Of a stretch of DNA of 64,000 nt, positions 10,285 through 24,392 are shown piece by piece. The notes beneath the pieces are model-generated. The model was given only the letters and a program-made list of their open reading frames with translations. It did not search any database and was not told the origin of the DNA. The position numbers and the translations under genes were made by a program. Every line of letters begins with the position of its first letter. The first letter of the stretch is position 1. The DNA is from an uncultured Gammaproteobacteria bacterium. Its GTDB lineage: Bacteria; Patescibacteriota; Patescibacteriia; UBA9934. The DNA is taken from assembly GCA_964372415.1 (NCBI GenBank), contig CAYJQH010000003.1, positions 24,923 through 88,922 on the forward strand, written 5' to 3'.

Positions 10285-10320
10285 AAAAGCCCCCGACGAT
10301 TAGCCGGGGGCCTTATTATT
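10285..10320. terminator. Bidirectional intrinsic terminator between convergent genes
   Basis: aaaaaGCCCCCGacgattagCCGGGGGCcttattattt: GC stem with A-run on one side and T-run on the other. Confidence 0.65.
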
Positions 10321-12665
10321 TATGGAGTAGTTATTTCACCTACCGTCTCTTCAGGAATCTCTTCAACTGGCTCCGGGAGTTCGATTCCTCCTTGAGCTCC
10401 TGCCGTGAGACGCTCCAAGCGTTGTTTGACGGCTGTATTTTCCGGGTTTAGTTCAAGTACTTTTTGCACTTCTGAAATGGCTGCTTCTATTTCACCTTCT
10501 TCCTCGTAAATAACCGACAGATACCAATGGGCGTTTGAGAAGTTAGGTGCAATTTCAACCAGTCGCTCAAGTTCCGCCTTAGCTAAATCGTTCTTTCCTT
10601 GACGCAAGTACAAGAGCGCCAACTGGATACCAACCCCAAGATCGTTAGGCGCCGCATCACGAACCGCCGTCATGTCACGAACTGCTTCGGCGAGCTTACC
10701 TTGGCGCTCCTCAACGAATGAGTAGTAATAACGAGCAAGTACGTAATCACTCTTTAAACGAATTGCCTCCTGAAGCGCTGCTTCTGCTTTGGCCAGGGCC
10801 TCAGTTTGTAATCTACTGGCCTCTGCTGCAGCGGCCTCATCCTCAGCCTTTGTTTGTGGCGCTAGACTATCGGCCGTCACTATATAAGCACGAGCTAATT
10901 CAACTCTGAGACGTGGGTTAACTGGCCACAGGGCAATAGCTTGCTCATATGAAGCCACCGAAGCTTGGCTCGCATCTGAGGCAAGCGGTATCAATTCTCT
11001 AAATACTGTGCCACTCACTTCCCAGTTCCGAACATCGTTTGGCGAAATGGTCTTAGCGGCATTAGCTACGGCTACAGCATTACCAAGCAGTGACTGTAGA
11101 CGAGCACTGTCTGGCTCATCTTTTTGAGCTTCAACTGCGGCTTCCAAAAGAAGCGCAGCCGCGAGATTGCGGTAATAAACATCATCCTTAGGCGAAAGCG
11201 TAGCCGCCTTATTAAGTAACTCAATTGAAGCCAACGTTCCTCCGTCTTGAGTCTGCATGGCCTTGGCGTAAGCGACATTGGCCAAATATTTATTAGTCAC
11301 AACGTAGCCCACTACCGCGCTAGCTGTGATTGCGAGAACAAAGGCGGCATAGGTAGCTAGTTTAGCCCGCGGTGATTGACCAAGCGCTAAAATTTTAGCG
11401 GGCGGCAATAACTCAGCTAAAAGAATTCCTGTTAGGAGCCAAAACCAGACAACAAGAGTCATGTTAGTGGGATACACGACCGAAGCCACAACAAGCACTA
11501 ACCAAGCAATGAAAGGTGGCACGAGCGTTGCCGCAACGTTACTTGAGCGAGCCATAATCAAGCGGCGAATAGCCCCCACGAATATGACTCCAAGAAGCGC
11601 TGCAAAGGCAAGCACACCAACCAGGCCGTGAGTGGTTAATGAGGTCAGCGCCTGCCCTGCCCCACGATCAAAAATAACATCCCAAAGCGGCGATTTATTT
11701 ACGTTTTCACTAACGAACTTGCTGTACCCTAGGCCAAATGTTCCAGGACCGCTGCCCAAAAGAAAATTTCCATCCTTCCAGGTGCCCTTAGCAATCTCAA
11801 TCGTGGTCGCTTTGCCAGGTGCTGCTTCACGAGCAAAGCTCACACCCTGAAAGGGGCTTTGAAAAAGAAGAAAAGCTGCTGACAAGAAAAAAAGTGCAAC
11901 AAGGGGTACCAGTCTGCCTGGCGAAGCGTAATATTCGGCATAATAGAAAGCCAGAATACTGAGCGCAATACTAACTATTAGTCCGAGCCACCAGATCATC
12001 CGAGCATCAAGAACAACGAGGAGTAGACCGCCAACGATGAACAGACCAATCATTAAGGCAATTTGTAAGATTCGCCCTCGACTGCTTTCTGATTCTTCCC
12101 GCACGAGCCACCAGGCGCTAGCCCAAGAGAGGGCAGTCAGCAGAAAATAACCCAAACCAATCGGGGCGCCGACAGTGTTGGCAAAAATTCCGATGTTAAT
12201 TTTAAGAATTGGCAACAAAGCCAAGAGGGCCACCAGAAAGGCGCTGCCGAGCAAGGCCCAACCTAGACGTTTGCTCTCCTCCGCGCCGCGCAAGAGAAGC
12301 GGCATGACTAGGGCTAAAAGACCAAGTAAAGCGGTGGTCAAAAAACTGACATCTTCTTCGGTTTGACCCCCGAGCCAACTGATGTGGCTCTCTTGAGACA
12401 ACAATGACCCGAGCCCAACCACCCCTACCCAGACGAGTACCGCGATCATCGCGTAGCCGAATCGCGCCTCAATACGACGTTCAACTAAACTAGCCGCAAG
12501 CCAAGTAAGAACTACCACAGCCGTAGCCAAGAACAACCACAATTGTTTATTTATCTCAAGTGGTTCCCCGGTCCAAGGAAAGGCCACAAGTGGCAAGGTA
12601 ACTGCAAAGAAAATGAGCGCTCCCCGTGAGATATTGCGCAACGTTCCGTCTAAATTTTTTGACAT
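10320..12665 (-). CDS. Polytopic membrane protein with O-antigen-ligase/Wzy-like core and C-terminal TPR repeats
   Basis: About 12 predicted TM helices in the first 450 aa, a large periplasmic loop, then about 300 aa of TPR-like helical repeats (AELERLVEIAPNFSNAHWYLSVIYEEEGEIEAAI...). Confidence 0.55.
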   Translation of the reverse strand: MSKNLDGTLRNISRGALIFFAVTLPLVAFPWTGEPLEINKQLWLFLATAVVVLTWLAASLVERRIEARFGYAMIAVLVWVGVVGLGSLLSQESHISWLGGQTEEDVSFLTTALLGLLALVMPLLLRGAEESKRLGWALLGSAFLVALLALLPILKINIGIFANTVGAPIGLGYFLLTALSWASAWWLVREESESSRGRILQIALMIGLFIVGGLLLVVLDARMIWWLGLIVSIALSILAFYYAEYYASPGRLVPLVALFFLSAAFLLFQSPFQGVSFAREAAPGKATTIEIAKGTWKDGNFLLGSGPGTFGLGYSKFVSENVNKSPLWDVIFDRGAGQALTSLTTHGLVGVLAFAALLGVIFVGAIRRLIMARSSNVAATLVPPFIAWLVLVVASVVYPTNMTLVVWFWLLTGILLAELLPPAKILALGQSPRAKLATYAAFVLAITASAVVGYVVTNKYLANVAYAKAMQTQDGGTLASIELLNKAATLSPKDDVYYRNLAAALLLEAAVEAQKDEPDSARLQSLLGNAVAVANAAKTISPNDVRNWEVSGTVFRELIPLASDASQASVASYEQAIALWPVNPRLRVELARAYIVTADSLAPQTKAEDEAAAAEASRLQTEALAKAEAALQEAIRLKSDYVLARYYYSFVEERQGKLAEAVRDMTAVRDAAPNDLGVGIQLALLYLRQGKNDLAKAELERLVEIAPNFSNAHWYLSVIYEEEGEIEAAISEVQKVLELNPENTAVKQRLERLTAGAQGGIELPEPVEEIPEETVGEITTP

Positions 12666-12674
12666 AGAATGTCC

Positions 12675-15600
12675 TTATAGTGCCACAGCTGTATTTGTCT
12701 CGCTAGATTCACTCTGGATAGAATTCGTAAGTGCTTCTCCCGTCTCTAGAGGAGCTGTTAATTCGGGATCCGGAGTTGTCACGTTGGGCTCACTAGTTGC
12801 CGATTGAGATTCGGAAGTTACTAACTCTGGTTCATTTGTTGTTAATTCGGTTTCGTTCTGTACTGTCTCAGAATCTGTGGGTATTACCTCGGTTACAAGT
12901 ACGTCTTGTGCCTCTTGGACCTCTGTGGGCTCTTGAGCGAGCGGCTCGAAGTCTTTGTGGTAGGCAATAACAAGCCAGTCTACAAGAACCCCGCTCGCCC
13001 CACCTTCAGCATGAATAGTAAAGCCACCGTTTGAGCGATCGGTTACGTAAATCTGACCGGTAATACCCGAGGGGGTAACAAGGACACGATATGATGACCC
13101 GGGTGAGATGACGTCGTTAAACTTAGGATCAATTTGTTCGAACGATACGTTCACAAGTCCATTAACGAGCGTCGCGGTTCCCGACAGTTGCACCGTAGTC
13201 TCGCGGCTTGCCACAGCATACGTTTCAACCCTTTCATTTTGGAATGAATTGACTATCTGAATCAGACGCCCCTGCGTTTCAAGATCGCCATTTTCGGAAA
13301 TTTTCCAGAGCCCGTTACCGGCCACGATTGATGACACCCCAAGAATACTCCCGCCATTCATGGCAAGTGAGCCCGAGATATTCAGATTTGAAACATTACT
13401 CGATAGGTTAGAGACGATATTTTCGGCCATCGGTGTTTCAGCGATACTGCCATTTCCATCAAAGTAAGACGGACGAATGAAAGCCACAATTTTCCCTTCG
13501 TTTGAGGTCATTTCAGCCATGGCATAACCAAGAATTGGGCCGGGTTCGGTAGCTTTCATAGCATAACCGGGACGAGTTGAGGTGGTGAGTGGGTCACCAA
13601 CCGCAACCGAGCCATTTTCGTTTGTCACAAAGGTCGGCACGCGGCCAGCCAAAGCCACCGGATAATCACCAACTCGATTTTCACCGGCTAAAAATCCAGG
13701 ACGTGTCGAAATCACGCCAGCAATGCGATCGCTATATGGCTCATCGCCGGATTTTTTAACTTGTTCTTGGCCATCGCCAAAAACCACTAATTCGCCCGGT
13801 TTGAGAGTCTCCTTAGAAGGGAACATTTCAGCAAAGTCGTATGAACCCGTTCCCCAACCGGCCGCGTTCGTTCTCATGTAACCGACACCCGTTGGATCGT
13901 AGAAAATATAAGCATTAGTTTGGGTAATTCCATTTCCGGAGGGATAAAATTTGCCGCTTAAAACAAAGTCTCCAGTTTGAGTGATCGCCCCTACCTCAAC
14001 ACCGGCATTGTTGGTCACTGCCAAACGCGAATCGGCTGGTCCGATAACCTTATTTACCAGCCCCATGGTTACCGTTTGCGCCGAACTTCCATCCCAGGCC
14101 GAGCCACGGAACGTCAAAGCATTTGAATCTTGTAGTGGATTTGCGGCAGTCGCCTGAGCCACGGCCGTAAGCGCTACTTCATCCATAAGGAGTGCAACTT
14201 GACCATCGGTACTCAACACCTGTCCGGCATACCACTGGGGCGACACGTGAATCTTAATCAGACCTTGACCGGCAGATATAGACTCCAAGGCAAAACCGAT
14301 GATTGACGACGGACCATTGGCCCGTCCGGCATAACCTGGAACGAATGAGGAAGCCGTCACCGCATCACCAATATTGATTGGCCCATCAGCGGCTGAGGTG
14401 TAGGTAGAAATTTGACCCTGAAGACCAACAATCCGGTAGTTAGGATTATCTTCAAGCGATCCATCAGCGCCAGGAATATTGTTACCCACAAATCCCGGGT
14501 TCGGTGAAACTACACCGACAACGTCCCTATTCCCCGCCTCGCAACGCTTGACCGAATTAGCATTCAAACGATCACGACAAACCACATAAGAATCCTGAAG
14601 CGTTGGATCGTTGCTTCTGAAAAATTCAGCGTAGTCAGCGCCCGCGTTGTAGGTTGCACCGTCACCAAAAATGTCGCCGTCGTTTTCAAAACGGAACTCG
14701 GCATCCGGCGTGCCATCAGCATCCGAAACGATGAGTATGACTTCGTCACCATTTTGAGCCTCGTTGACGTTAATCACTAGAGCCTGCGAGGTAGCTGCCG
14801 TCGTGGCATCGGCTACGACGTCTTGAGTGATAACCAAACTCGATGACGTGGCAGCGGTGCTATCGTTACGAATCGACATCACATTGACATCGAAAGCCGT
14901 ATTATCCTGAAAGACATGAGCTATCGGTTGGTTGGCGGTCGCGCCAAGGTTGGTGTAAACCGTAAGGCCAAAGTCGATGTTCCCAGTGTTATCTATATGC
15001 ACTGCTCCACCAAGGGTTGAACTAACCGTTGACCCGGTATTACCGGAAGGATCAACAAAAATTGAGGAAGCGGTTCCGGAGTTGGCCAAATTAATAACGC
15101 TCACGCTCAAGGTACCGCTTGTGCCGCTATCTGCGAGCGATAACAGCGTGTTTGTGCCATCGGTGACGCTGAGCGTTCCCGTGCCGGCAATTTCGATGGT
15201 TGGCGAGGTATCGGCAAATACCAAATCAGAATCCCAACCAGTGCCGATTTCGATTGCATTCTCATCAGAACCGGTAGCCGTGATGTTGGCAATATTCAAC
15301 GCTCTAAACGTATCACCACCATCCCCTGAAGGCGTGAGCGAAGAGACGTTTATAGCGTTGGCAACTTGGCCAGAAACAGCTGTCCCAACTGCTTCGAGCA
15401 CAATGTCGAGACCGTCAAAACTATTGAAGCTAGCAAACCCGGAGTTGGTGATGGCTAAAAGATCATTGTTGGTTCCCGGTGACGCGGCGGCCACCACCTG
15501 GAGGTTTGAGTTAGAATCAGCATTTACTACAACGTCTCCTGAACCATTAGGAACTAAGAACAACGTTTCGTTTGTTCCAGTTGTAATATCGTTTGAAACA

Positions 15601-18600
15601 CCGCTAAGGGTAAGTGTGCCATCAGTGGTAATTGCATCTAGGCTCGCCGCGCCAGTCGCCCCGATAGACCAATCATTACCCCCGGTAATAGTAATTACCG
15701 TTCCGGCGTTTGAGTTACCAATCGTCAGTGTATCGGCCGTGGTCGAATTGGTGGCAACATTGATAGTGTTGCCCAAATCGGTGGTAACGCCACCAATATC
15801 GAGTGTCGTAGAATTTCCGGACGCATCAAGCAGGTTAAAGGTCGCTGAGGTGGAGGTAAAATCACCACCATTTAATGCCAAGTCACCGGTTGTCGTAACA
15901 TCGCCACTTGAGCCAACCACGTCAAAGTTTGTGAAATCAATGTTTGCTGTAGTACCAAGAAAAATGTTGTCACCGATATTGAGCGCATTAGTAAGCTCAG
16001 CATCAGAAACATCGATACCGTCAGTGATGCCACCAGCAGATGCCTGAACAATAATACCGTCCACCATGAGTTCGTTGGTGTCAGAATTCGTAAACACGGC
16101 CAGCGAATCAGGAACACCGGTACCTCCCCCATCATTCGCATTCTGAATAATCATGATGTTGTTACTTCCGGTATCAGCCGCCGCTGTATCGGTAAAAGCT
16201 ACAACAAACGCATTCAGGCTAACATCTGTCCCGTGCGTAACATCAATATTGAAGTTCTCCGAGGCAGCGCCATCGGTGACAAAGGTGAAATCAACGTCAT
16301 CATTTATGGCAAGCGTACCGAAAGAAGCGGCACCAGCAGCGCTGATCGACCAGTTGGCATCGGCAAGCGACACATTATCTAGGGCGTCTCCGATCGTGAT
16401 TGTATCGGCATCGGCATTTGTACCGAGTGTCAAGGTGTCGCAAGACGCTGAGTTACACAGCGAAACGCTCGTGGCGTTGGTGTCGCCAAGGGTTAAGGCT
16501 CCTCCAGCGTTTGTATCAAGACCAACACCCGCCGCCACGGTGATGGCACCGGCAGAGGAAACATCAAAATTATCAAAATTAAGTGTACCGGTGGTACCGA
16601 GAATTTCGTTTGCGCCTACAGACAAGGCAGTTCCAATCTCGTCGTCGGAAGCGTTGAAAGCGGTGGTAAGAGACGCCCCAGGATCGATGCCAAAAGTAAT
16701 ACCGTTCGCGACTATTTCGTTAGTATCTGCTGATTCAAGAATGATAAAGCCATCAGGAGTGCCGGTGGCTCCGCCATCATTAGCGTTATGCAGAGCTATA
16801 AAATAATTTGCTCCCGTGTCGGCGGCGGCGGTATCGGTCATGAGCATCGTGAGCGGCGTCATACTGACATCCGTGGCGTGCGTTACGGTAATCGCTAAAT
16901 TTTCTGACTGCGCACCATCGGTTGTAAAATTGAAGTTCACGTTGTCGTTCGCTGTGAGATCGCCACCAAAAGTGGCCAGGCCGGCACCAGTAATCGACCA
17001 ATCATCACCGCCCGTAATGGCCACAGTCGTGGCCGCATTGCTGTTACCGACAGTTAAAACATCTGCCGTAGTTGAGTTCGTGGCGATATTCACTGTGTTG
17101 CCAAGGTCAGTCGTCACGCCGCCGAAATCAAGAGTTGTCGAAGCGCCAGCTGCGTCCTGAAAGTCGAACGTGGCAACTGACGACGTAGCTATGGACCCAT
17201 CGCGGTAGCGTGTTGAAGCACCGCCGGCAGTGAATCCGACATCAGATAAAAACTCACCCGAAGCCGTAATCCGAGCCTTGGTAGTATCGGCTGCCGTGCC
17301 GGAATTGGTGGTTTCATCTGTAATAAGTGTAAAAACGTCATTGTTGGTGTTCCCGTTATCAAAATCGATGAATAAGGCTTGGGCGGTGGCCGTAGCTGAA
17401 CTTGAGAACATTTCAACGATGTTGCCGGTAGCCGCCCCAGAAGCCGTGAACTGGAACATGTTATCCGACCAAGCGCTGCTGCTTCTAATGTTGGCAATTG
17501 AACCGCTCGTCAAAGCATTAGTATCAATATCAAGCAGGTTGCCTGTTGTCAGAGCCGTTGCATCAAGCATGAAAACCTCGCCCGAGGTAGCAGTCGTATT
17601 AGTAAAATCTAGTGTCGCGTCATCTTTAAAAGTAAAGAAAGTAGCACCACCATCTTGAACCACAAAATCTCCAGTCGAAGTCAGGTTCACGACAGTATTA
17701 GCCGAAGAACCGTTAGTAACGGTAAACGTCTCGGCCCCGTCGAGAGCGATTGAGGTTGAGGCATCGAGGTCTAATGCGTCTTCAAACGAGTCGAAATCAA
17801 GACAATCCGTACACACCAAATCGCTCACCGTCGCTACACCGGCTGTAGTAATACTCCAGTCGTCACCACCTGTAATGGCGATAGTCGAGGCAGCATTGGA
17901 GTTACCGATGGTGATAACGTCAGCAGTCGTGACATTCGTCGCGATGTTTATAGTGTTGCCGAGGTCTGTAGTGACGCCGCCAATGTCGAGAGTTGTCGAG
18001 TTAGCCGCTGCGTCAAGAAAATTGAAGGTGGCAGAAGTCGAAGTAAAATCACCGCCGTTCAGTGCCAAATCGCCGGCTGAAGTAATGTTCCCACTCGCTC
18101 CTAGGACATCAAAATTGGTGTAATCAATATTACCTGTGGTACCAGCCAAATCATTCGCGCCAACCGACAGAGCGGTTACTATTTCAGCATCACTTGCGTC
18201 AATCGCCGCGGTCAAAGCGCCGGCTGCTACATCAAATAAAATACCTGTGGCCACTGCCTCATTGGTATCCAAGTGGCGCAACCCCAGGAGCGCGTCGGGT
18301 GTGCCGGTCGCTCCCCCATCGTCCTCGTTGTCGATGTTGAGCAGGATTACCGTTCCCGTATCGGCTGCGGCTGTGTTAGTCGAATTCAAACTTATGACAG
18401 AAATCGAAGAATCTACAGCGTGTGTGTGATCGATGGTTAAATTTTCAGCTCCCACGCCACTTGTTGCCAAAGTAATGTCTAAATCACCACTGAGCGATAA
18501 GTCGTCGTTGGTACCAAGTTGAACAACACCTGAAGAATCAATGGTTAACGTGCCGTCACTTGTAATGTCATCGCCGTTAATTGCCAAGTCACCGGTTGCT

Positions 18601-19304
18601 ACAATATCGCCCTCCTTGTCGACGCGGAAAATTGAGGTGCCACCATCGGCTACACCAAAAATCGTGTCGTTCGCTGCCGAATCAACAGCCGCTGGATTGA
18701 TGTAAAGGGAACCAGCCGAAACACCGGAACCTGACGGGTTACCGGTCACGACCAAGTTACCAGATGAATTGTAAGCCACGATGGCCGCTGCCGTCGCGCC
18801 GTCGTTATCGGCGTCAAGACCATCGAGGGTTTCGGAATTCAAGGCGTATGGCGCGGCGACGATTTGTTTTCGCGGACTTAAAACCTCGCCAGCAACAGTT
18901 ACCTGAAGAAACAAGGCTGCGTTATCGGCAAAAATTGCATCACTGATTGCGGCATAAGGTGTGGCAGCAGCGGTATCACCCAAATTTTCTGAAAACAAAC
19001 CGTCGGTCAAAGTCACGGTCCGTGCGGTCGCCGAAGCACACGTTGCAGATGAGTTCGACCACACACAAGAACCGCCCGACGAGGCCGTGTAGAACTCAAA
19101 GATCATGCTGACCGAAGCGCTTGAAAGCGGTATACCGTTGGCATTCAATAATCGACCTTGATAAGTAATTATGTTGGGCGCTGAGGCGGCCTGAACGATC
19201 GGCGTCACTCCGCTCACAGGACCCAAAGCAAAAATACAAAGCGTCGCCAGCAGAAATCTGGCGACTTTTGTCGCGCTGAATTTAGACTTGAGATGCGTTG
19301 TCAT
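12675..19304 (-). CDS. Giant (~2,200 aa) secreted repetitive surface protein
   Basis: Signal peptide ([28 protein letters not shown]). N-terminal module [16 protein letters not shown]...[13 protein letters not shown] resembles modules of phage-tail-fibre-like bacterial proteins. About 1,400 aa of Thr/Ser/Gly/Asp/Asn-rich beta-repeat units ([23 protein letters not shown]..Tx[14 protein letters not shown] recurs at least 3 times). Duplicated ~150-aa C-terminal domain (...[14 protein letters not shown] / ...[14 protein letters not shown]). Acidic Thr/Glu tail. The longest ORF begins at 19424. The Met before the signal peptide at 19304 is preferred. Confidence 0.7.
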
Positions 19305-21777
19305 GAAGTTCGTCGAGCGTCCGATGAAGACCCACGTTGACGGTGAGTGGTGCCGGCTCTGCTTGAGTGGTAGTGATTGGTTTGATGATCTTTTCCACAA
19401 AACCGGGTTTACTAACACTCGCATAATACTCGTTCGGACCGAGCAAGAACGAATAACGCCCGAGACGATCTGTTAAGGTCGACTCGATAAGCTTATTATA
19501 CCGCGGTTCAAAGAGCCTTATGACGGCGTTGCTCACAGGTTTATGCGTATTTTTATCGTAAACAATTCCCCAGCCTTTTGGCTTCTTCTTGTATACTAGT
19601 TTAAGCACCAGTAACAGCACTATAAATTGAATTCCGAGCATTGCTCCTGCAGCCAGGCTCGGGGCGATGATCAAGACGACTATTGAGATTCCCAGTCCCG
19701 ATAAGCCAAAAACAAGCTGGATTGTTTTTAAAAGTCGTTCGACAGCTAATTTTCGAGGTGCGTGAAATTGGGGCGCGTCAGACGGATCAAGTGGAATATT
19801 GGCTGTAACATTGGTTTTTTGCTCCGATACCTCAATATCTTCACCATGATAAACATCAAGATATTGACCGTCCGTTTTGATTTCGGCCAAATATTTACTG
19901 GGAAAGTTAAAACCTGGCTTTATTACCTCAAGGCGATACCTTCCTGGTTCAGCAAATACATAGAATCGACCTTCAGGGCTAGTAACGGTCGACTTCACAA
20001 GTCGATGTTCCGGCATACGGAACACGCGAATAGTGGCTAGACCTATCGGCACTTTAGTTACCGCGTTGTAAACTCGGCCAAAAGGGCGGCGTCGTTTTTT
20101 ACCGAAAAGTAAAGCTGGCGAAGTAAAAATGTAAAAAATAAAAGGCAGTAAATTTGAAACCGTCGCGAGGAGGGCAAGCGATACCAAGGCGATTGCGGCA
20201 GCCAATGGAAGGCCTATTCTGGCGATTGCCTGGGCAAGGGGGGCGTCAAGAATGTTACGTAGAAAAGGTGGCTCGAAGGGCGTTTCATCTGGTGTGATTA
20301 TAGGCACTAAAAGACGCTCAAGACGAACGTTAATAGTTAGAATGTTGTTTGTCACATTAACCTCAAGAGCAACATCCTCATAACCCGATTTGCTAACTAT
20401 GACTCGATAAGGACCGTTCGGCGTATACCAACCAATTAAACCATCGTCACCTGTTAAAACCGGATTTTCCTGATTAAAAACAAAGGCTTCCCAGGCTACA
20501 CCTGGCCCTTCTGAAAGATCATAAACGGTAACCACAGCTCCGGAAACAGGTACTACTTCGTCGTCAATAATCTCGTAAACAAGGCCAGAATCAGCGATAT
20601 CAATAAACACTGTGGCAGTCGCTTCTGTGTCATCAGCAAAATGCACAATGGTTCCAAGGGCGTCGTCAGAAACTGGGACGGGCACCAAACCCGAAAACAC
20701 GTTCGGCTCTTTAGTCGGTGAGAGTACGTATTGATCGTCACCTAAGACTACAACCACGCTTGTCGCCGCATCTTCAGAGTGAACAATAACTTCAACCTCA
20801 GCATAGGTTCCAGGCAGGACCTCTACCCCACCGTCGGCATCATCAAGGCGAAAGTCGTCAACTGCAATAATATCAATCTCGACCCGCGGTTCATCTATTA
20901 ATTCATTATCCGTTTCCTCATCTTTGGGCCCGTCTGGTGATGGCGTTGGGGTCGTTTCTGGAAGAGGAACTGATGGTGGCTGTGGCTCGGGAGTTGGTTC
21001 GGGTTCAGGAATCGGCTCGGGAGTTGGTTCGGGTGTAGGTTCCGGTTCAGGCTCAGGAATTGGTGTAGGCTCTGGCTCGGGAGTTGGTTCGGGTGTAGGT
21101 TCCGGTTCAGGCTCAGGCTCAGGTTCTGGTTCAGGTGACGGGGGTGTCGGATTCGACCCTCCTCCGCCTCCCCCACCGCCTCCGCCTGATGATGTTACAA
21201 CCACGCTCACCGAGTCACTACCAGCGCTCGTGTAAGGAAGGGGTATTGAGCCATCATTGCCTGAGGTTCCACCAAGCGTCAGGTAGTAAGTGCCGGGAGT
21301 TGAAGGATTCGTAATTCTATTAGCGCCAGAACCCGATGCCGCGGCGTTCGTACCAATTTCAACTGTTACCACACTACCGTTAGCCATCGCTCCCCCGTCC
21401 CCGGCACAAATGGTCAGAGTGAGGGTACCTGATGACATAGCTACCGAGGCCTGTTCAGCCCCAGCACACGTTGCTGCAGTTGTTAAATCAACCCCATCAT
21501 CAGTAATGTCGACATCATCCTCAACAATCGAGCTCGTCGTAAAACTACTTGGAAAAACTAGAGTTATTGTTTCACCCTCCGCCCAGGCGTCGACAAGCGT
21601 AAAGGTAAATTTGTGATTTGCAGTTTGTGACGTAACAAGAGAAGTTGGCTGATCAGAAAGGCTATCAACCGCAAGCGCCATCACCCACACAGGAACAATT
21701 AAAAACATGCTGACTAGCACTAAAAGTGTGGTCAGCGACTGACTAAAACAACGCTGCGCCCTCCGCCCGTCGTTCAC
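19282..21777 (-). CDS. Secreted/polytopic protein with Gly run, Pro-Glu-Thr linker and two CarboxypepD_reg-like beta-sandwich domains flanked by TM segments
   Basis: Signal peptide. G11 run followed by [18 protein letters not shown]... linker. Two TM blocks and two paralogous domains ([20 protein letters not shown]... / [21 protein letters not shown]...). Confidence 0.6.
20940..21180. repeat. Tandem ~63-nt DNA repeats encoding the Pro-Glu-Pro-Thr linker
   Basis: ggctcgggagttggttcgggtgtaggttccggttcaggctcagg... recurs in tandem at about 21016-21141 with flanking degenerate copies. Confidence 0.6.
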
Positions 21778-21788
21778 AATTGCTTACA

Positions 21789-22682
21789 CTATACGCGACG
21801 GAATTGTCGCCAAACAAATAATAAAATGACAACGATTAATCCGCCTACGAGCGCCAAAATACGCCAAGGAAATAGTACCACGTTTGTGGTCTTAAAAATT
21901 ACACTTTGGCCATCGGCTGAAAGCAATTCAAGAGTAGCCGTGTACGGACCAATGTAAATGCCTGAATTAGGTTGCCAATTAATCGTAAATACCCGACTCG
22001 TTCCGCCGGGAATTCGTCGCGGAATTTCAATCAATGGCAAGGCTGCTATATCTTTTCCCCACATGTTTGTAAGCACCACCTGTCCTACAGGCTGTGTGGT
22101 AGCTTGGCCTTGATTTGTTAGAACGGTGATGAATCTTATGGGAAAAGTGCTTGTAAACTTCGGTGTCGCCTCAAAAGACGAAATAGTTAGGTCGGCTTCC
22201 AAAACATCCCCGATGGTCATAAAAAACAAGGCTGCGACTCCTTGCCTAACCGATACGCCGCCGGTTACCTCTGCAGATTTATTTTCTTGTTGGGCAATTA
22301 AGGCCACCGTTACTACTCTGCCTGATGCTTCGCCTTCCGGGCTAATACTTAGATCAATAGCTCTAGTGCTATGTGGTGTAAGTTCAACCCGTTGAGTAGT
22401 CAGTTCAAACCAGTCTTTCATATCTTCCGGAAGTTCAGAAAATACGAGGTCGTCAGCGCTTGATCCGAATTCTACGAGTTGAAGCGATAAATTATACGTC
22501 TCTGTTTGATTGTTTTCGTTTATTAAATGCAAGGTTCTGACCAATTCCGTGCCAGGATCAATTACAACGTCAGTTGCATCTGGATCAAAACGAACTGCGC
22601 TCGCCGTAGTAGTCAAAAAGAAACTTGAGGTTATCCCAAGGATGCACAACAATACTCGAAATTTATTAGTAATTACCGACAA
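21789..22682 (-). CDS. Secreted protein with C-terminal TM anchor (two beta-rich domains), hypothetical
   Basis: N-terminal signal peptide. C-terminal hydrophobic helix plus RQFRRV stop-transfer. The architecture resembles DUF916-type surface-cluster proteins but that could not be confirmed. Confidence 0.5.
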   Translation of the reverse strand: MSVITNKFRVLLCILGITSSFFLTTTASAVRFDPDATDVVIDPGTELVRTLHLINENNQTETYNLSLQLVEFGSSADDLVFSELPEDMKDWFELTTQRVELTPHSTRAIDLSISPEGEASGRVVTVALIAQQENKSAEVTGGVSVRQGVAALFFMTIGDVLEADLTISSFEATPKFTSTFPIRFITVLTNQGQATTQPVGQVVLTNMWGKDIAALPLIEIPRRIPGGTSRVFTINWQPNSGIYIGPYTATLELLSADGQSVIFKTTNVVLFPWRILALVGGLIVVILLFVWRQFRRV

Positions 22683-23571
22683 AAATGAAGGTCAACGAAT
22701 GGGAGTATGAATTACTCTGAATGCCGGAATCAACAGCTGATTTGAGAGTTAAAAAATCACGCGACTTAAAGGATACCGCCGATCGACTGGCGATTTGCTG
22801 AAGCGAGGTGGTAAAAGCAGAGTCTTCTGTATCAAAAGTTGATGAGGCAAGCGTAGTATCTGATGATTTTGCGCCGTATTCTGTACTACCTAACGATACC
22901 GAGCCGTCTGTAACATCACTAATCACGGGTGTGCCAGCGGGTGCCCTGAGTTCGCCATCCTCAAGCACGAACATGCTGTAACCGCTAGGTACGTCAGATG
23001 TCACTTCCCAGCCGATGATTCCAGTACTAGCAGTAGTCGACGATAATGATGAGAGCGGCAGACTAGTACCCGAAAGCTCGTAGACGTAGTCGCTCACGCC
23101 ATCAATCGTTGGACTTGATGAGCCAGTTGTTAAAAAATCGACGATTAATGTTGAGCCGCCAATTGAGGTAATTTTGCCTGTGGCCGAAATTTGACTTAGT
23201 CCCTCGTCCTGGACAATTGCGATGTAATCTCCCGTCGAGTAACCGGAGGTCGAAGTTACGGTTACGGTCGTGCCGGTCAGGGCTGTGGCTCCAACCTGCG
23301 AGTTAAGATCCTGAGAAAACAAGCTGAAGAAGACAGTTGGATCATAAATACCTGAACGAAAACCAGAATCCAAACGATAAGATGCAGATGACGATATACC
23401 AGCAAGACCTGACTCAAGCGAATCTCTAAGTCTGTATGAGCTAGATGAGCTCGTATCTGAGCCGCCTGAATTAAGGGAATCCCACTGAATTTGGTAAGTC
23501 GTTGAAGTCATGCTAGCAAAACCGAAATTTGGAGCAAAAAAAAGCAAACCAACAACAAGCACCGTAGACAT
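22666..23571 (-). CDS. Ser/Thr-rich secreted protein, hypothetical
   Basis: Signal peptide MSTVLVVGLLFFAPNFGFASM. Low-complexity S/T-rich body. First gene of the minus-strand surface operon. Start chosen at Met 23571 rather than ORF start 23637. Confidence 0.45.
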   Translation of the reverse strand: MSTVLVVGLLFFAPNFGFASMTSTTYQIQWDSLNSGGSDTSSSSSYRLRDSLESGLAGISSSASYRLDSGFRSGIYDPTVFFSLFSQDLNSQVGATALTGTTVTVTSTSGYSTGDYIAIVQDEGLSQISATGKITSIGGSTLIVDFLTTGSSSPTIDGVSDYVYELSGTSLPLSSLSSTTASTGIIGWEVTSDVPSGYSMFVLEDGELRAPAGTPVISDVTDGSVSLGSTEYGAKSSDTTLASSTFDTEDSAFTTSLQQIASRSAVSFKSRDFLTLKSAVDSGIQSNSYSHSLTFIFVGNY

Positions 23572-23645
23572 CTTTTTGCCAATATTTACAGGCATAATCT
23601 GCTGAACACAATAAGTCGTCAACCGTCTGTTTAGCAAGCTTTTTT

Positions 23646-24022: not shown

Positions 24023-24098
24023 TGGTGGACCTGAGCGGATTCGAACCGCTGACCTCCGCAATGCGAATGCGGCGCTCTACCAACTGAGCCACAGGCCC
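24023..24098 (-). tRNA. tRNA-Ala (anticodon CGC)
   Basis: 76-nt cloverleaf on the minus strand with G3:U70 Ala identity pair and anticodon loop TTCGCAT. T-loop GGTTCGAATCC. Encoded CCA. Confidence 0.85.
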
Positions 24099-24316: not shown

Positions 24317-24392
24317 TGGTGCCCCCACCCGGAGTTGAACCAGGATCAAGGGCTTAGGACGCCCCCGTTCTATCCAATTGAACTATGGGGAC
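24317..24392 (-). tRNA. tRNA-Arg (anticodon CCT)
   Basis: 76-nt cloverleaf on the minus strand. Anticodon loop GTCCTAA. T-arm CCTGG-TTCAACT-CCGGG. Encoded CCA. Confidence 0.75.

Follow-up and report, generated by a model that had tools for sequence, protein, structure and literature searches.

A candidate membrane-embedded subunit of a surface-fibre gene cluster in Uhrbacteria and its conserved C-terminal anchor module

Introduction

Bacteria of the Candidate Phyla Radiation (CPR, Patescibacteria) are thought to live attached to host cells, and the construction and anchoring of their attachment structures are poorly understood. Here, we describe a five-gene cluster of an uncultured Uhrbacteria-type bacterium, located in a 64,000-nucleotide stretch of contig CAYJQH010000003.1 (GenBank assembly GCA_964372415.1, positions 24,923 to 88,922 of the forward strand), which we call the window. 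The third gene of the cluster encodes an 831-residue surface protein, referred to below as the target. Two described systems are closest to the cluster. One is the Pam pilus of CPR bacteria, in which the pilins PamA/B/E and the tip protein PamT are assembled by donor-strand exchange; it also includes the membrane-anchored PapD-like chaperones PamC/D, the membrane-tethered terminator PamR and a co-localised tail-fibre-like gene (bioRxiv 10.64898/2026.03.03.709456). The Pam system has been reported mainly from Saccharimonadia and Microgenomatia, and the preprint mentions neither WxL nor DUF916 nor Uhrbacteria (bioRxiv 10.64898/2026.03.03.709456). The other is the WxL system, whose WxLIP proteins have the layout DUF916-DUF3324-transmembrane (TM) helix and carry a β-hairpin predicted to insert into the partner WxL domain (PMC10599100). 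Both models feature a membrane-anchored protein with two immunoglobulin (Ig)-like domains that complements its partner by a β-strand (bioRxiv 10.64898/2026.03.03.709456; PMC10599100).

The locus in the window appears to extend the newly described Pam-type pilin family to Uhrbacteria and links this family by sequence to WxLIP/DUF916 of Firmicutes. It also reveals a large unannotated anchor module (at least 870 clusters at 50% identity) present on many giant surface proteins of Patescibacteria. From the anatomy of the target and the synteny of its gene, we infer that the protein is a membrane-embedded base or stalk subunit of a cell-surface fibre or pilus apparatus encoded by the cluster, and we estimate the probability of this assignment at about 0.45.

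Results and discussion

Gene cluster and its conservation

The cluster comprises five co-directional genes, the ends of which overlap or abut.

22666-23637, minus strand: gene 1, Pam-type pilin-like secreted protein (probable start at 23574)
21789-22682, minus strand: gene 2, WxLIP/DUF916-like protein, beginning with a signal peptide and ending in a TM helix and basic tail
19282-21777, minus strand: gene 3, coding sequence of the target (stop codon 19282-19284)
12675-19304, minus strand: gene 4, giant secreted tail-fibre-like protein of ~2209 residues, the start of which overlaps the 3' end of the target gene by 23 nt
10320-12665, minus strand: gene 5, polytopic membrane protein with ~10-12 hydrophobic segments and C-terminal TPR repeats

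The open reading frame (ORF) of the target had been outlined in an earlier note on this DNA, made without database searches, and our analysis agrees with it: 831 residues on the minus strand, beginning with a GTG codon. The same start codon was chosen by the gene caller on two identical public contigs (ERR4904390 and ERR3478686).

We found 154 related loci in GTDB species representatives, most of them titled Candidatus Uhrbacteria. The order gene 1-gene 2-target is preserved at 62 of the 67 loci with enough upstream DNA, and an ORF of at least 900 residues directly follows the target gene at 55 of the 61 loci with enough downstream DNA. The window and the loci of its relatives share the housekeeping flanks RmuC/S20/holA and YchF. 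The near-invariant gene order, together with the overlapping gene ends, which suggest translational coupling, argues for a functional complex. Many records of metagenome-assembled genomes titled "uncultured Gammaproteobacteria bacterium", the title borne by the window itself, carry the Uhrbacteria-type cluster. These titles look like placeholder mislabels and provide no evidence for the family in Proteobacteria.

The gene 1 orthologs appear to be related to Pam proteins. The NCBIfam model CPR_pilus_PamT matches 22 of 23 orthologs (best E-value 3.3e-15, at most 56 bits against a cutoff of 240), and in 10 of the 23 the C-terminal ~135 residues align end-to-end (positions 2-148 of 148) to CPR_Pam_pilin_C, with at most 35 bits against a cutoff of 55. 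Gene 1 of the window itself matches only the PamT model, with 33.6 bits. The gene 1 family profile had no match in the PDB, in a copy apparently lacking Pam structures. No WxL domain of Pfam was detected in the gene 1 orthologs (E ≤ 0.1), the target or the giant protein.

The gene 2 family resembles WxLIP proteins at the level of its profile, which matches the solved structure of EfmWxLIP1 of E. faecium (PDB 9i25_C and 9i1y_A, E-value 4.4e-7). The Pfam model WxLIP_PGBD (PF06030, DUF916) matches 11 of 21 gene 2 orthologs (best E-value 2.8e-6), and the C-terminal TM helix is conserved. Gene 2 has no match to the NCBIfam Pam models, and a word-indexed homolog search with it returned only three proteins.

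The gene 4 product resembles a phage tail-fibre or spike protein, possibly domesticated as a host-attachment fibre. Its last 700 residues contain a Peptidase_G2 intramolecular-chaperone (IMC) autoproteolysis domain, matched in two stretches with 43.3 bits against a cutoff of 25. The N-terminus has a weak match to Bdello_MAT_N of the Bdellovibrio mosaic adhesive trimer, and the tail is acidic, composed of Pro, Glu, Thr and Ser. An 8-bp stem-loop (6 GC) at 19243-19265, 17 nt past the stop codon of the target, falls within the signal-peptide-coding part of gene 4. Because its T-tail is weak, the stem-loop is possibly a modulator and not a terminator, and may affect read-through or translation.

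Domain anatomy of the target protein

The structure of the full-length target was predicted using AlphaFold2 (AF2) from an alignment of 25 full-length homologs. The head domain was also modelled separately, with a predicted local distance difference test score (pLDDT) of 93 and a predicted template modelling score of 0.86. From the N- to the C-terminus, the protein is composed of the following elements.

21670-21777, minus strand: residues 1-36, signal peptide with an RR n-region and a hydrophobic core (hydropathy), predicted to be cleaved between ALA and VD
21223-21669, minus strand: residues 37-185, Ig-like β-sandwich head with a conserved cysteine pair (AF2)
20887-21222, minus strand: residues 186-297, disordered acidic Gly/Pro/Glu/Thr stalk (pLDDT 27-50, composition)
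20590-20886, minus strand: residues 298-396, extracytoplasmic β-sandwich (AF2 strands, pLDDT 84-91)
20302-20589, minus strand: residues 397-492, extracytoplasmic CarboxypepD_reg/PEGA-like sandwich (Pfam CarbopepD_reg_2 and PEGA stretches at 452-488, AF2)
20104-20241, minus strand: residues 513-558, TM block 1, formed by TM helix 1a and a conserved aromatic helix 1b (FNLLPYLQYLFTSPLLLF type, probably interfacial)
20086-20103, minus strand: residues 559-564, polybasic patch GKKRRR
19774-20085, minus strand: residues 565-668, CarboxypepD_reg domain 1, probably cytoplasmic (AF2 sandwich 567-665)
19594-19758, minus strand: residues 674-728, basic amphipathic lead-in and TM hairpin with an uncharged loop of 3-6 residues
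19318-19593, minus strand: residues 729-820, polybasic KKKPK and CarboxypepD_reg domain 2, probably cytoplasmic (AF2 sandwich 737-817)

A cleavage site of the A-x-A|(A)TV type is kept across the target orthologs. The fold of the head is Ig-like, of the type typical for Gram-positive pilins, adhesins and cohesins, and also resembles MSCRAMM binding domains. The head sequences of orthologs are 47-64% identical, and the remainder of the ectodomain diverges.

Besides the N-terminal signal-like segment, hydropathy delimits two hydrophobic blocks, at residues 514-558 and 682-730, which AF2 models as helices 513-540 and 543-557 (block 1) and 674-704 and 708-728 (block 2). The Pfam model CarboxypepD_reg (PF13620) matches the target with 79.8 bits against a gathering score of 32.3 (E-value 2e-22) in three stretches, the best of which is 737-814. 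The two C-terminal sandwiches are paralogous, with 38% identity over 64 residues including the basic lead-in (E-value 3e-12). Hydropathy, AF2, Pfam and this identity thus agree with the alternation of two TM blocks and two paralogous CarboxypepD_reg-like domains proposed in the earlier note, which had suggested the search with hidden Markov models (HMMs). That note had described neither the third sandwich, the CarboxypepD_reg/PEGA-like domain at residues ~397-492, nor the β-domain 298-396, nor the cleavable-looking signal peptide.

A Foldseek search of the PDB with the full-length model returned only generic multi-Ig matches (TIE, SdrD, PrgB, BcpA and α-2-macroglobulins). PDB searches with the single sequences of the N-domain, gene 1 and gene 2 gave no significant match, and a word-indexed homolog search with the N-domain found only seven fragments. 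The target carries no C-terminal sorting signal of the LPXTG/sortase, PEP-CTERM, GlyGly-CTERM or similar type, since a folded domain of ~90-100 residues follows each TM/basic element and a sandwich stands at the end of the protein.

The C-terminal anchor module

The C-terminal ~310 residues of the target are a conserved, reusable and previously undescribed anchor module composed of three helices and two sandwiches. A full HMMER scan of 1.84 billion representatives with residues 495-831 as the query yielded 3856 matches at E ≤ 1e-3 and 870 at E ≤ 1e-30, counted as clusters at 50% identity. The best 150 matches all span the whole module in one stretch, within proteins of 334-2784 residues, and almost always the module sits at the very end of its protein, with a median of 6 residues remaining to the C-terminus. 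Named carriers belong to Patescibacteria, Uhrbacteria, Magasanikbacteria and Parcubacteria. The ectodomains upstream of the module are diverse and of adhesin type: 25 FG-GAP repeats with cadherin-like and Big_9 domains, Big_6/Big_13, fn3, or DUF11. Invariant residues of the module concentrate in the two C-terminal sandwiches and the helices. The earlier note had called the topology unusual; in the sense of rare the word does not apply, as the module defines a large family.

No Pfam or NCBIfam model covers the composite ~310-residue unit, and a literature search on Uhrbacteria/CarboxypepD_reg transmembrane or cytoplasmic modules found nothing relevant. An HMM scan of the window detected no second copy. 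At minimum, the module provides a clean HMM-definable marker for CPR surface adhesins.

Two giant paralogues of 2784 and 2367 residues, one of them with 25 FG-GAP repeats, are encoded on a single 83-kb contig, and both end in the anchor module. Therefore, some genomes deploy the anchor on several adhesins. The count of HMM matches to the mid-domain was dropped as a test of boundaries, because the model cross-matches the paralogous sandwiches. We drew no inference from a distant CarboxypepD_reg protein that is located in an unrelated mobile-element context.

Charge pattern and membrane topology

According to the positive-inside rule, the basic flanks of membrane segments are cytoplasmic. We counted charged residues around the two TM blocks in the 25 orthologs and in 134 module representatives that are mutually less than 50% identical. 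Ahead of block 1, the mean number of Lys and Arg is 1.5 in the orthologs, alongside 4.8 Asp and Glu, and 0.8 in the representatives, alongside 1.7 Asp and Glu. The mean Lys and Arg count rises to 4.7 and 4.9, respectively, after block 1 and is 4.5 and 4.7 before block 2. The hairpin loop of block 2 contains 0 and 0.1 basic residues, and the segment after block 2 contains 3.6 and 3.0. By this rule, the sequences on either side of block 2 and the one following block 1 would be cytoplasmic, so that block 1 is expected to cross the membrane an odd number of times.

Helix 1b is the segment least prone to membrane insertion, with ~+5.7 kcal/mol in a crude Hessa sum compared to 1.0-3.0 for the other helices, and it has the highest hydrophobic moment among the membrane helices. 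It is probably an interfacial helix on the inner face. Cysteines occur at 1.69 per 100 residues in the ectodomains of the family, with an even count in 78% of the proteins, compared to 0.057 per 100 residues in the module after the first TM helix. The charge pattern, the properties of helix 1b and the cysteine statistics together make it probable that both C-terminal CarboxypepD_reg domains are cytoplasmic. This placement conflicts with the extracytoplasmic position assigned to them in the earlier note.

Linker, glycine run and repeats

The linker between the head and the membrane-proximal sandwiches (residues 186-297) contains 33% Pro, 19% Glu, 10% Gly and 10% Thr, consistent with the Pro/Glu/Thr low-complexity linker on a surface protein proposed earlier. 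It includes a glycine run and one exact duplication.

21157-21186, minus strand: residues 198-207, run of ten glycines; a run of 4-15 glycines is present at the equivalent position in many orthologs
21074-21117, minus strand: copy 1 of an exact 44-nt repeat, from codon 221
21014-21057, minus strand: copy 2 of the repeat, from codon 241, at a spacing of 60 nt (20 codons)

The repeat structure differs from that reported in the earlier note. The glycine run, given there as a homopolymeric G11, has ten residues encoded by mixed codons (GGC GGA GGC GGT GGG GGA GGC GGA GGA GGG); the longest mononucleotide run in the whole gene is 6. In place of tandem 63-nt repeats there is the single 44-nt duplicate at 60-nt spacing. 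Tandem Repeats Finder reports only periods 6 and 12 in the tract, repeat finding gave the same verdict on the 63-nt unit, and the autocorrelation is 0.51 at lags 6, 12 and 60 and at the background level of 0.27 at lag 63. When the same peptide was resampled with synonymous codons (n = 1000), the longest repeat averaged 14 nt, with a maximum of 32 nt, and 44 nt was never reached. The duplicate is far beyond chance, and therefore indicates a recent in-frame duplication of 20 codons (60 nt).

The linkers of the 25 orthologs are 83-200 residues long, apart from one ortholog that lacks the linker. They are composed of Pro/Glu, Pro/Asp, Ser/Thr/Asp/Gly, Asp/Glu or Cys-rich CGDGVCE-type modules, are acidic in all cases, and usually open with a glycine run. 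In some orthologs, tandem Cys-rich modules (CGDGVCE...C..DC type) stand in place of the acidic Pro-rich spacer. This replacement further supports an extracytoplasmic location and free exchange of the linker region.

Between five near-identical strains of one ortholog, there are two substitutions and a single indel, seven versus eight glycines in the run, and the Pro-Glu tract is invariant. The target strain was recovered from two independent public runs (Logan), with contigs 100% identical to the window over 1.8 and 2.9 kb. The ERR4904390 contig ends short of the glycine run. The ERR3478686 contig is identical through the run and ends at window position 21088, 30 nt into the first 44-nt copy, probably at a k-mer break of the short-read assembly. 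The Logan contigs thus carry no copy-number information, and the strain comparison proposed in the earlier note yields, for the five ortholog strains, a one-codon difference in the glycine run and no variation in the Pro-Glu tract. Among JGI metagenome contigs, no exact match to the right flank was detected.

The evidence supports a linker that evolves by fast in-frame length drift, which is real but modest. The earlier description of the tract as a classic substrate for slipped-strand variation captures the in-frame length changes (the 60-nt duplication, the G7/G8 difference and the variable linkers) and overstates the case in view of the two repeat copies and the mixed codons. Phase variation is unsupported: the units are 6, 12 and 60 nt, and since the repeats are in frame, they cannot produce on/off frameshift switching.

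Proposed role of the target and alternative explanations

We hypothesize that the target is a membrane-embedded base or stalk subunit of the fibre apparatus that works as follows. The Sec signal peptide would export the N-terminal part of the protein, comprising the disulfide-containing Ig-like head (37-185), the ~110-residue acidic spacer and the two membrane-proximal sandwiches (298-492). The spacer could reach up to ~25-30 nm if extended. The chain would cross the membrane once in block 1, with the aromatic helix 1b at the inner interface, fold into CarboxypepD_reg domain 1 in the cytoplasm, pass out and back through the tight TM hairpin, and end with CarboxypepD_reg domain 2, again in the cytoplasm. 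This C-terminal unit is the anchor module present at the C-terminus of hundreds of Patescibacteria surface proteins. Carried beyond the wall on the spacer, the head would dock with partners encoded alongside, the Pam-type pilin-like protein and/or the giant tail-fibre-like protein. The gene 2 product, a WxLIP-like membrane-anchored Ig "chaperone", would handle the pilin-like protein. Docking would tether the host-attachment structure to the cell, and quick in-frame insertion, deletion and duplication in the spacer could tune its reach.

Several observations weigh against this assignment. In the AF2 model, the head folds its N-terminal strand into its own sandwich (pLDDT 96), and the strand is therefore no obvious free donor of the kind proposed for PamR. 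Every gene 1 score against the Pam models lies under the curated NCBI cutoffs, and gene 2 of the window on its own has no Pfam or NCBIfam match. The same anchor is borne by unrelated ectodomains elsewhere, so that the anchor alone implies no role in a pilus. The cytoplasmic placement of the C-terminal domains is a prediction from the positive-inside rule and the cysteine statistics, and known proteins carry CarboxypepD_reg, PEGA and transthyretin-like domains mostly on the extracytoplasmic side. The Foldseek neighbours are likewise all extracellular proteins, as are the Pfam relatives. These last points favour an all-outside topology in line with the earlier note, in which both TM blocks would be hairpins and all soluble domains lie outside, so that the protein is stapled to the outer face of the membrane. 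AF2 indeed builds block 1 as two helices of 28 and 15 residues with a two-residue break, comparable to the three-residue break in block 2, and the anchor looks like a duplicated unit of "helix-helix-basic patch-sandwich", which fits if block 1 is a true hairpin. Such an arrangement is nevertheless unlikely, as it would put ~13 conserved Lys and Arg on the outer flanks and none inside, in each of the 25 orthologs and on average over the 134 representatives. It would also require helix 1b, just 15-18 residues long, amphipathic and the least insertion-prone, to span the membrane, and it does not accommodate the ~30-fold depletion of cysteines in the module relative to the ectodomains of the same proteins.

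The target might instead be a self-contained adhesin, whose Ig-like head binds a host or substrate ligand and whose neighbours are independent surface proteins sharing only regulation. The similarity of the head fold to MSCRAMM, pilin and cohesin binding domains, the succession of head, low-complexity stalk, B-like sandwiches and anchor that mirrors Sdr/Clf adhesins, and the clearly adhesin-type ectodomains on other copies of the anchor are all in its favour. We consider it quite unlikely, because the order of gene 1, gene 2, target and giant gene persists over very divergent species, and the head is more conserved than would be usual for a ligand-binding tip. A different possibility is that the target acts as an outside-in transducer similar to integrins, in which the three helices relay contact of the head or fibre to the cytoplasmic sandwiches for the recruitment of a cytoplasmic partner. 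Two folded, conserved and probably cytoplasmic domains exceed the needs of a simple anchor, the invariant residues cluster in the sandwiches and helices, and 25 FG-GAP repeats, also a feature of integrin α-chains, are present in one family member. However, the target contains no enzymatic or signalling domain, the cluster has no conserved gene for a cytoplasmic partner, and the idea is purely inferential, which leaves it very improbable. A broader version, in which the anchor is a Patescibacteria-wide transmembrane coupling module linking giant adhesins and the Pam/WxL-like fibre to a cytoplasmic partner, is highly doubtful; if true, epibionts would gain an integrin-like outside-in or inside-out connection instead of a passive anchor. 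We give as little credence to a contingency locus as to the transducer. In such a locus, slipped-strand events at the glycine run and the Pro-Glu repeats would switch the protein or vary it rapidly between the cells of a population. The recent exact duplication, the G7/G8 polymorphism in the ortholog cluster and the hypervariability of linkers between species point in that direction. Against it, all units are multiples of three, so that slippage cannot shift the frame; the glycine codons are mixed, and the long repeat has only two copies. Furthermore, the contigs from the two samples are identical to the window as far as they extend, and the Pro-Glu tract does not vary among the five ortholog strains.

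Gene 5 and flanking tRNA genes

Gene 5 is kept after the giant gene at three loci of relatives. Its membrane part has no Pfam match, and we speculate that it is a glycosyltransferase or ligase-like enzyme acting on Ser/Thr/Pro-rich surface proteins. Two tRNA genes (24026-24098 and 24320-24392, minus strand) lie on the same strand as the cluster, in a ~950-nt gap of lower GC content between the divergent rmuC and gene 1.

Comparison with known systems

The cluster appears to share several properties with the Pam system. Both are CPR-specific and exported by Sec, with no trans-envelope machine of their own. Orthologs of gene 1 match the PamT and Pam_pilin_C models, with scores below cutoff, and gene 2 probably has the layout of PamC/D, a signal peptide followed by an Ig tandem and a C-terminal TM helix. 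A tail-fibre-like gene is co-localised in both cases and is giant in the cluster described here. The target occupies the logical place of PamR: it is anchored in the membrane and has an N-terminal β-domain by which the structure could be tethered. The differences are that the lineage here is Uhrbacteria, that the cluster has one pilin-like gene and no PamA/B/E paralogues, and that the target has no detectable similarity to any NCBIfam Pam model. PamR consists of an RbmA-like pair of FnIII domains and one C-terminal TM helix, whereas the target is built of an Ig head, a 110-residue spacer, two sandwiches, three TM helices and two further sandwiches that are probably cytoplasmic. We rejected the target as a homolog of PamR because of the lack of a model match, the different architecture and the absence of a free N-terminal strand.

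The WxL clusters of Firmicutes resemble the Patescibacteria locus through gene 2, the family of which matches EfmWxLIP1 and WxLIP_PGBD, and through a similar cluster logic, in which a small secreted partner and a large surface protein accompany a membrane-anchored protein with two Ig domains. In contrast to WxL clusters, a WxL domain is not detectable in the gene 1 orthologs, the target or the giant protein. WxL clusters lack a counterpart of the polytopic anchor of the target, and none has been described for the giant IMC-bearing fibre. In view of the sequence relationships, a common ancestry of the CPR Pam system and the Firmicutes WxL clusters is possible.

The Sdr/Clf proteins of the MSCRAMM type are similar to the target in having an Ig-like head, projected through the wall by an acidic low-complexity stalk that varies in repeat length in frame, and in their CnaB/SdrD_B-like sandwiches (a weak SdrD_B match and Foldseek matches to SdrD). 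The likeness is one of layout and fold. The target is held by a polytopic membrane module and not by sortase/LPXTG, and its stalk is located between the head and the sandwiches and is made of Pro-Glu/Thr, as opposed to the Ser-Asp of the staphylococcal stalk.

Three domains of the target belong to the CarboxypepD_reg/PEGA/transthyretin-like fold superfamily, and two of them exceed the Pfam gathering score in the hit to the whole protein. What sets the target apart within the superfamily is the presence of two copies that each follow TM helices and a polybasic patch and are probably cytoplasmic. If the sandwiches truly reside in the cytoplasm, the anchor module represents an unusual use of a normally extracellular fold and a candidate link from the fibre to the cell interior.

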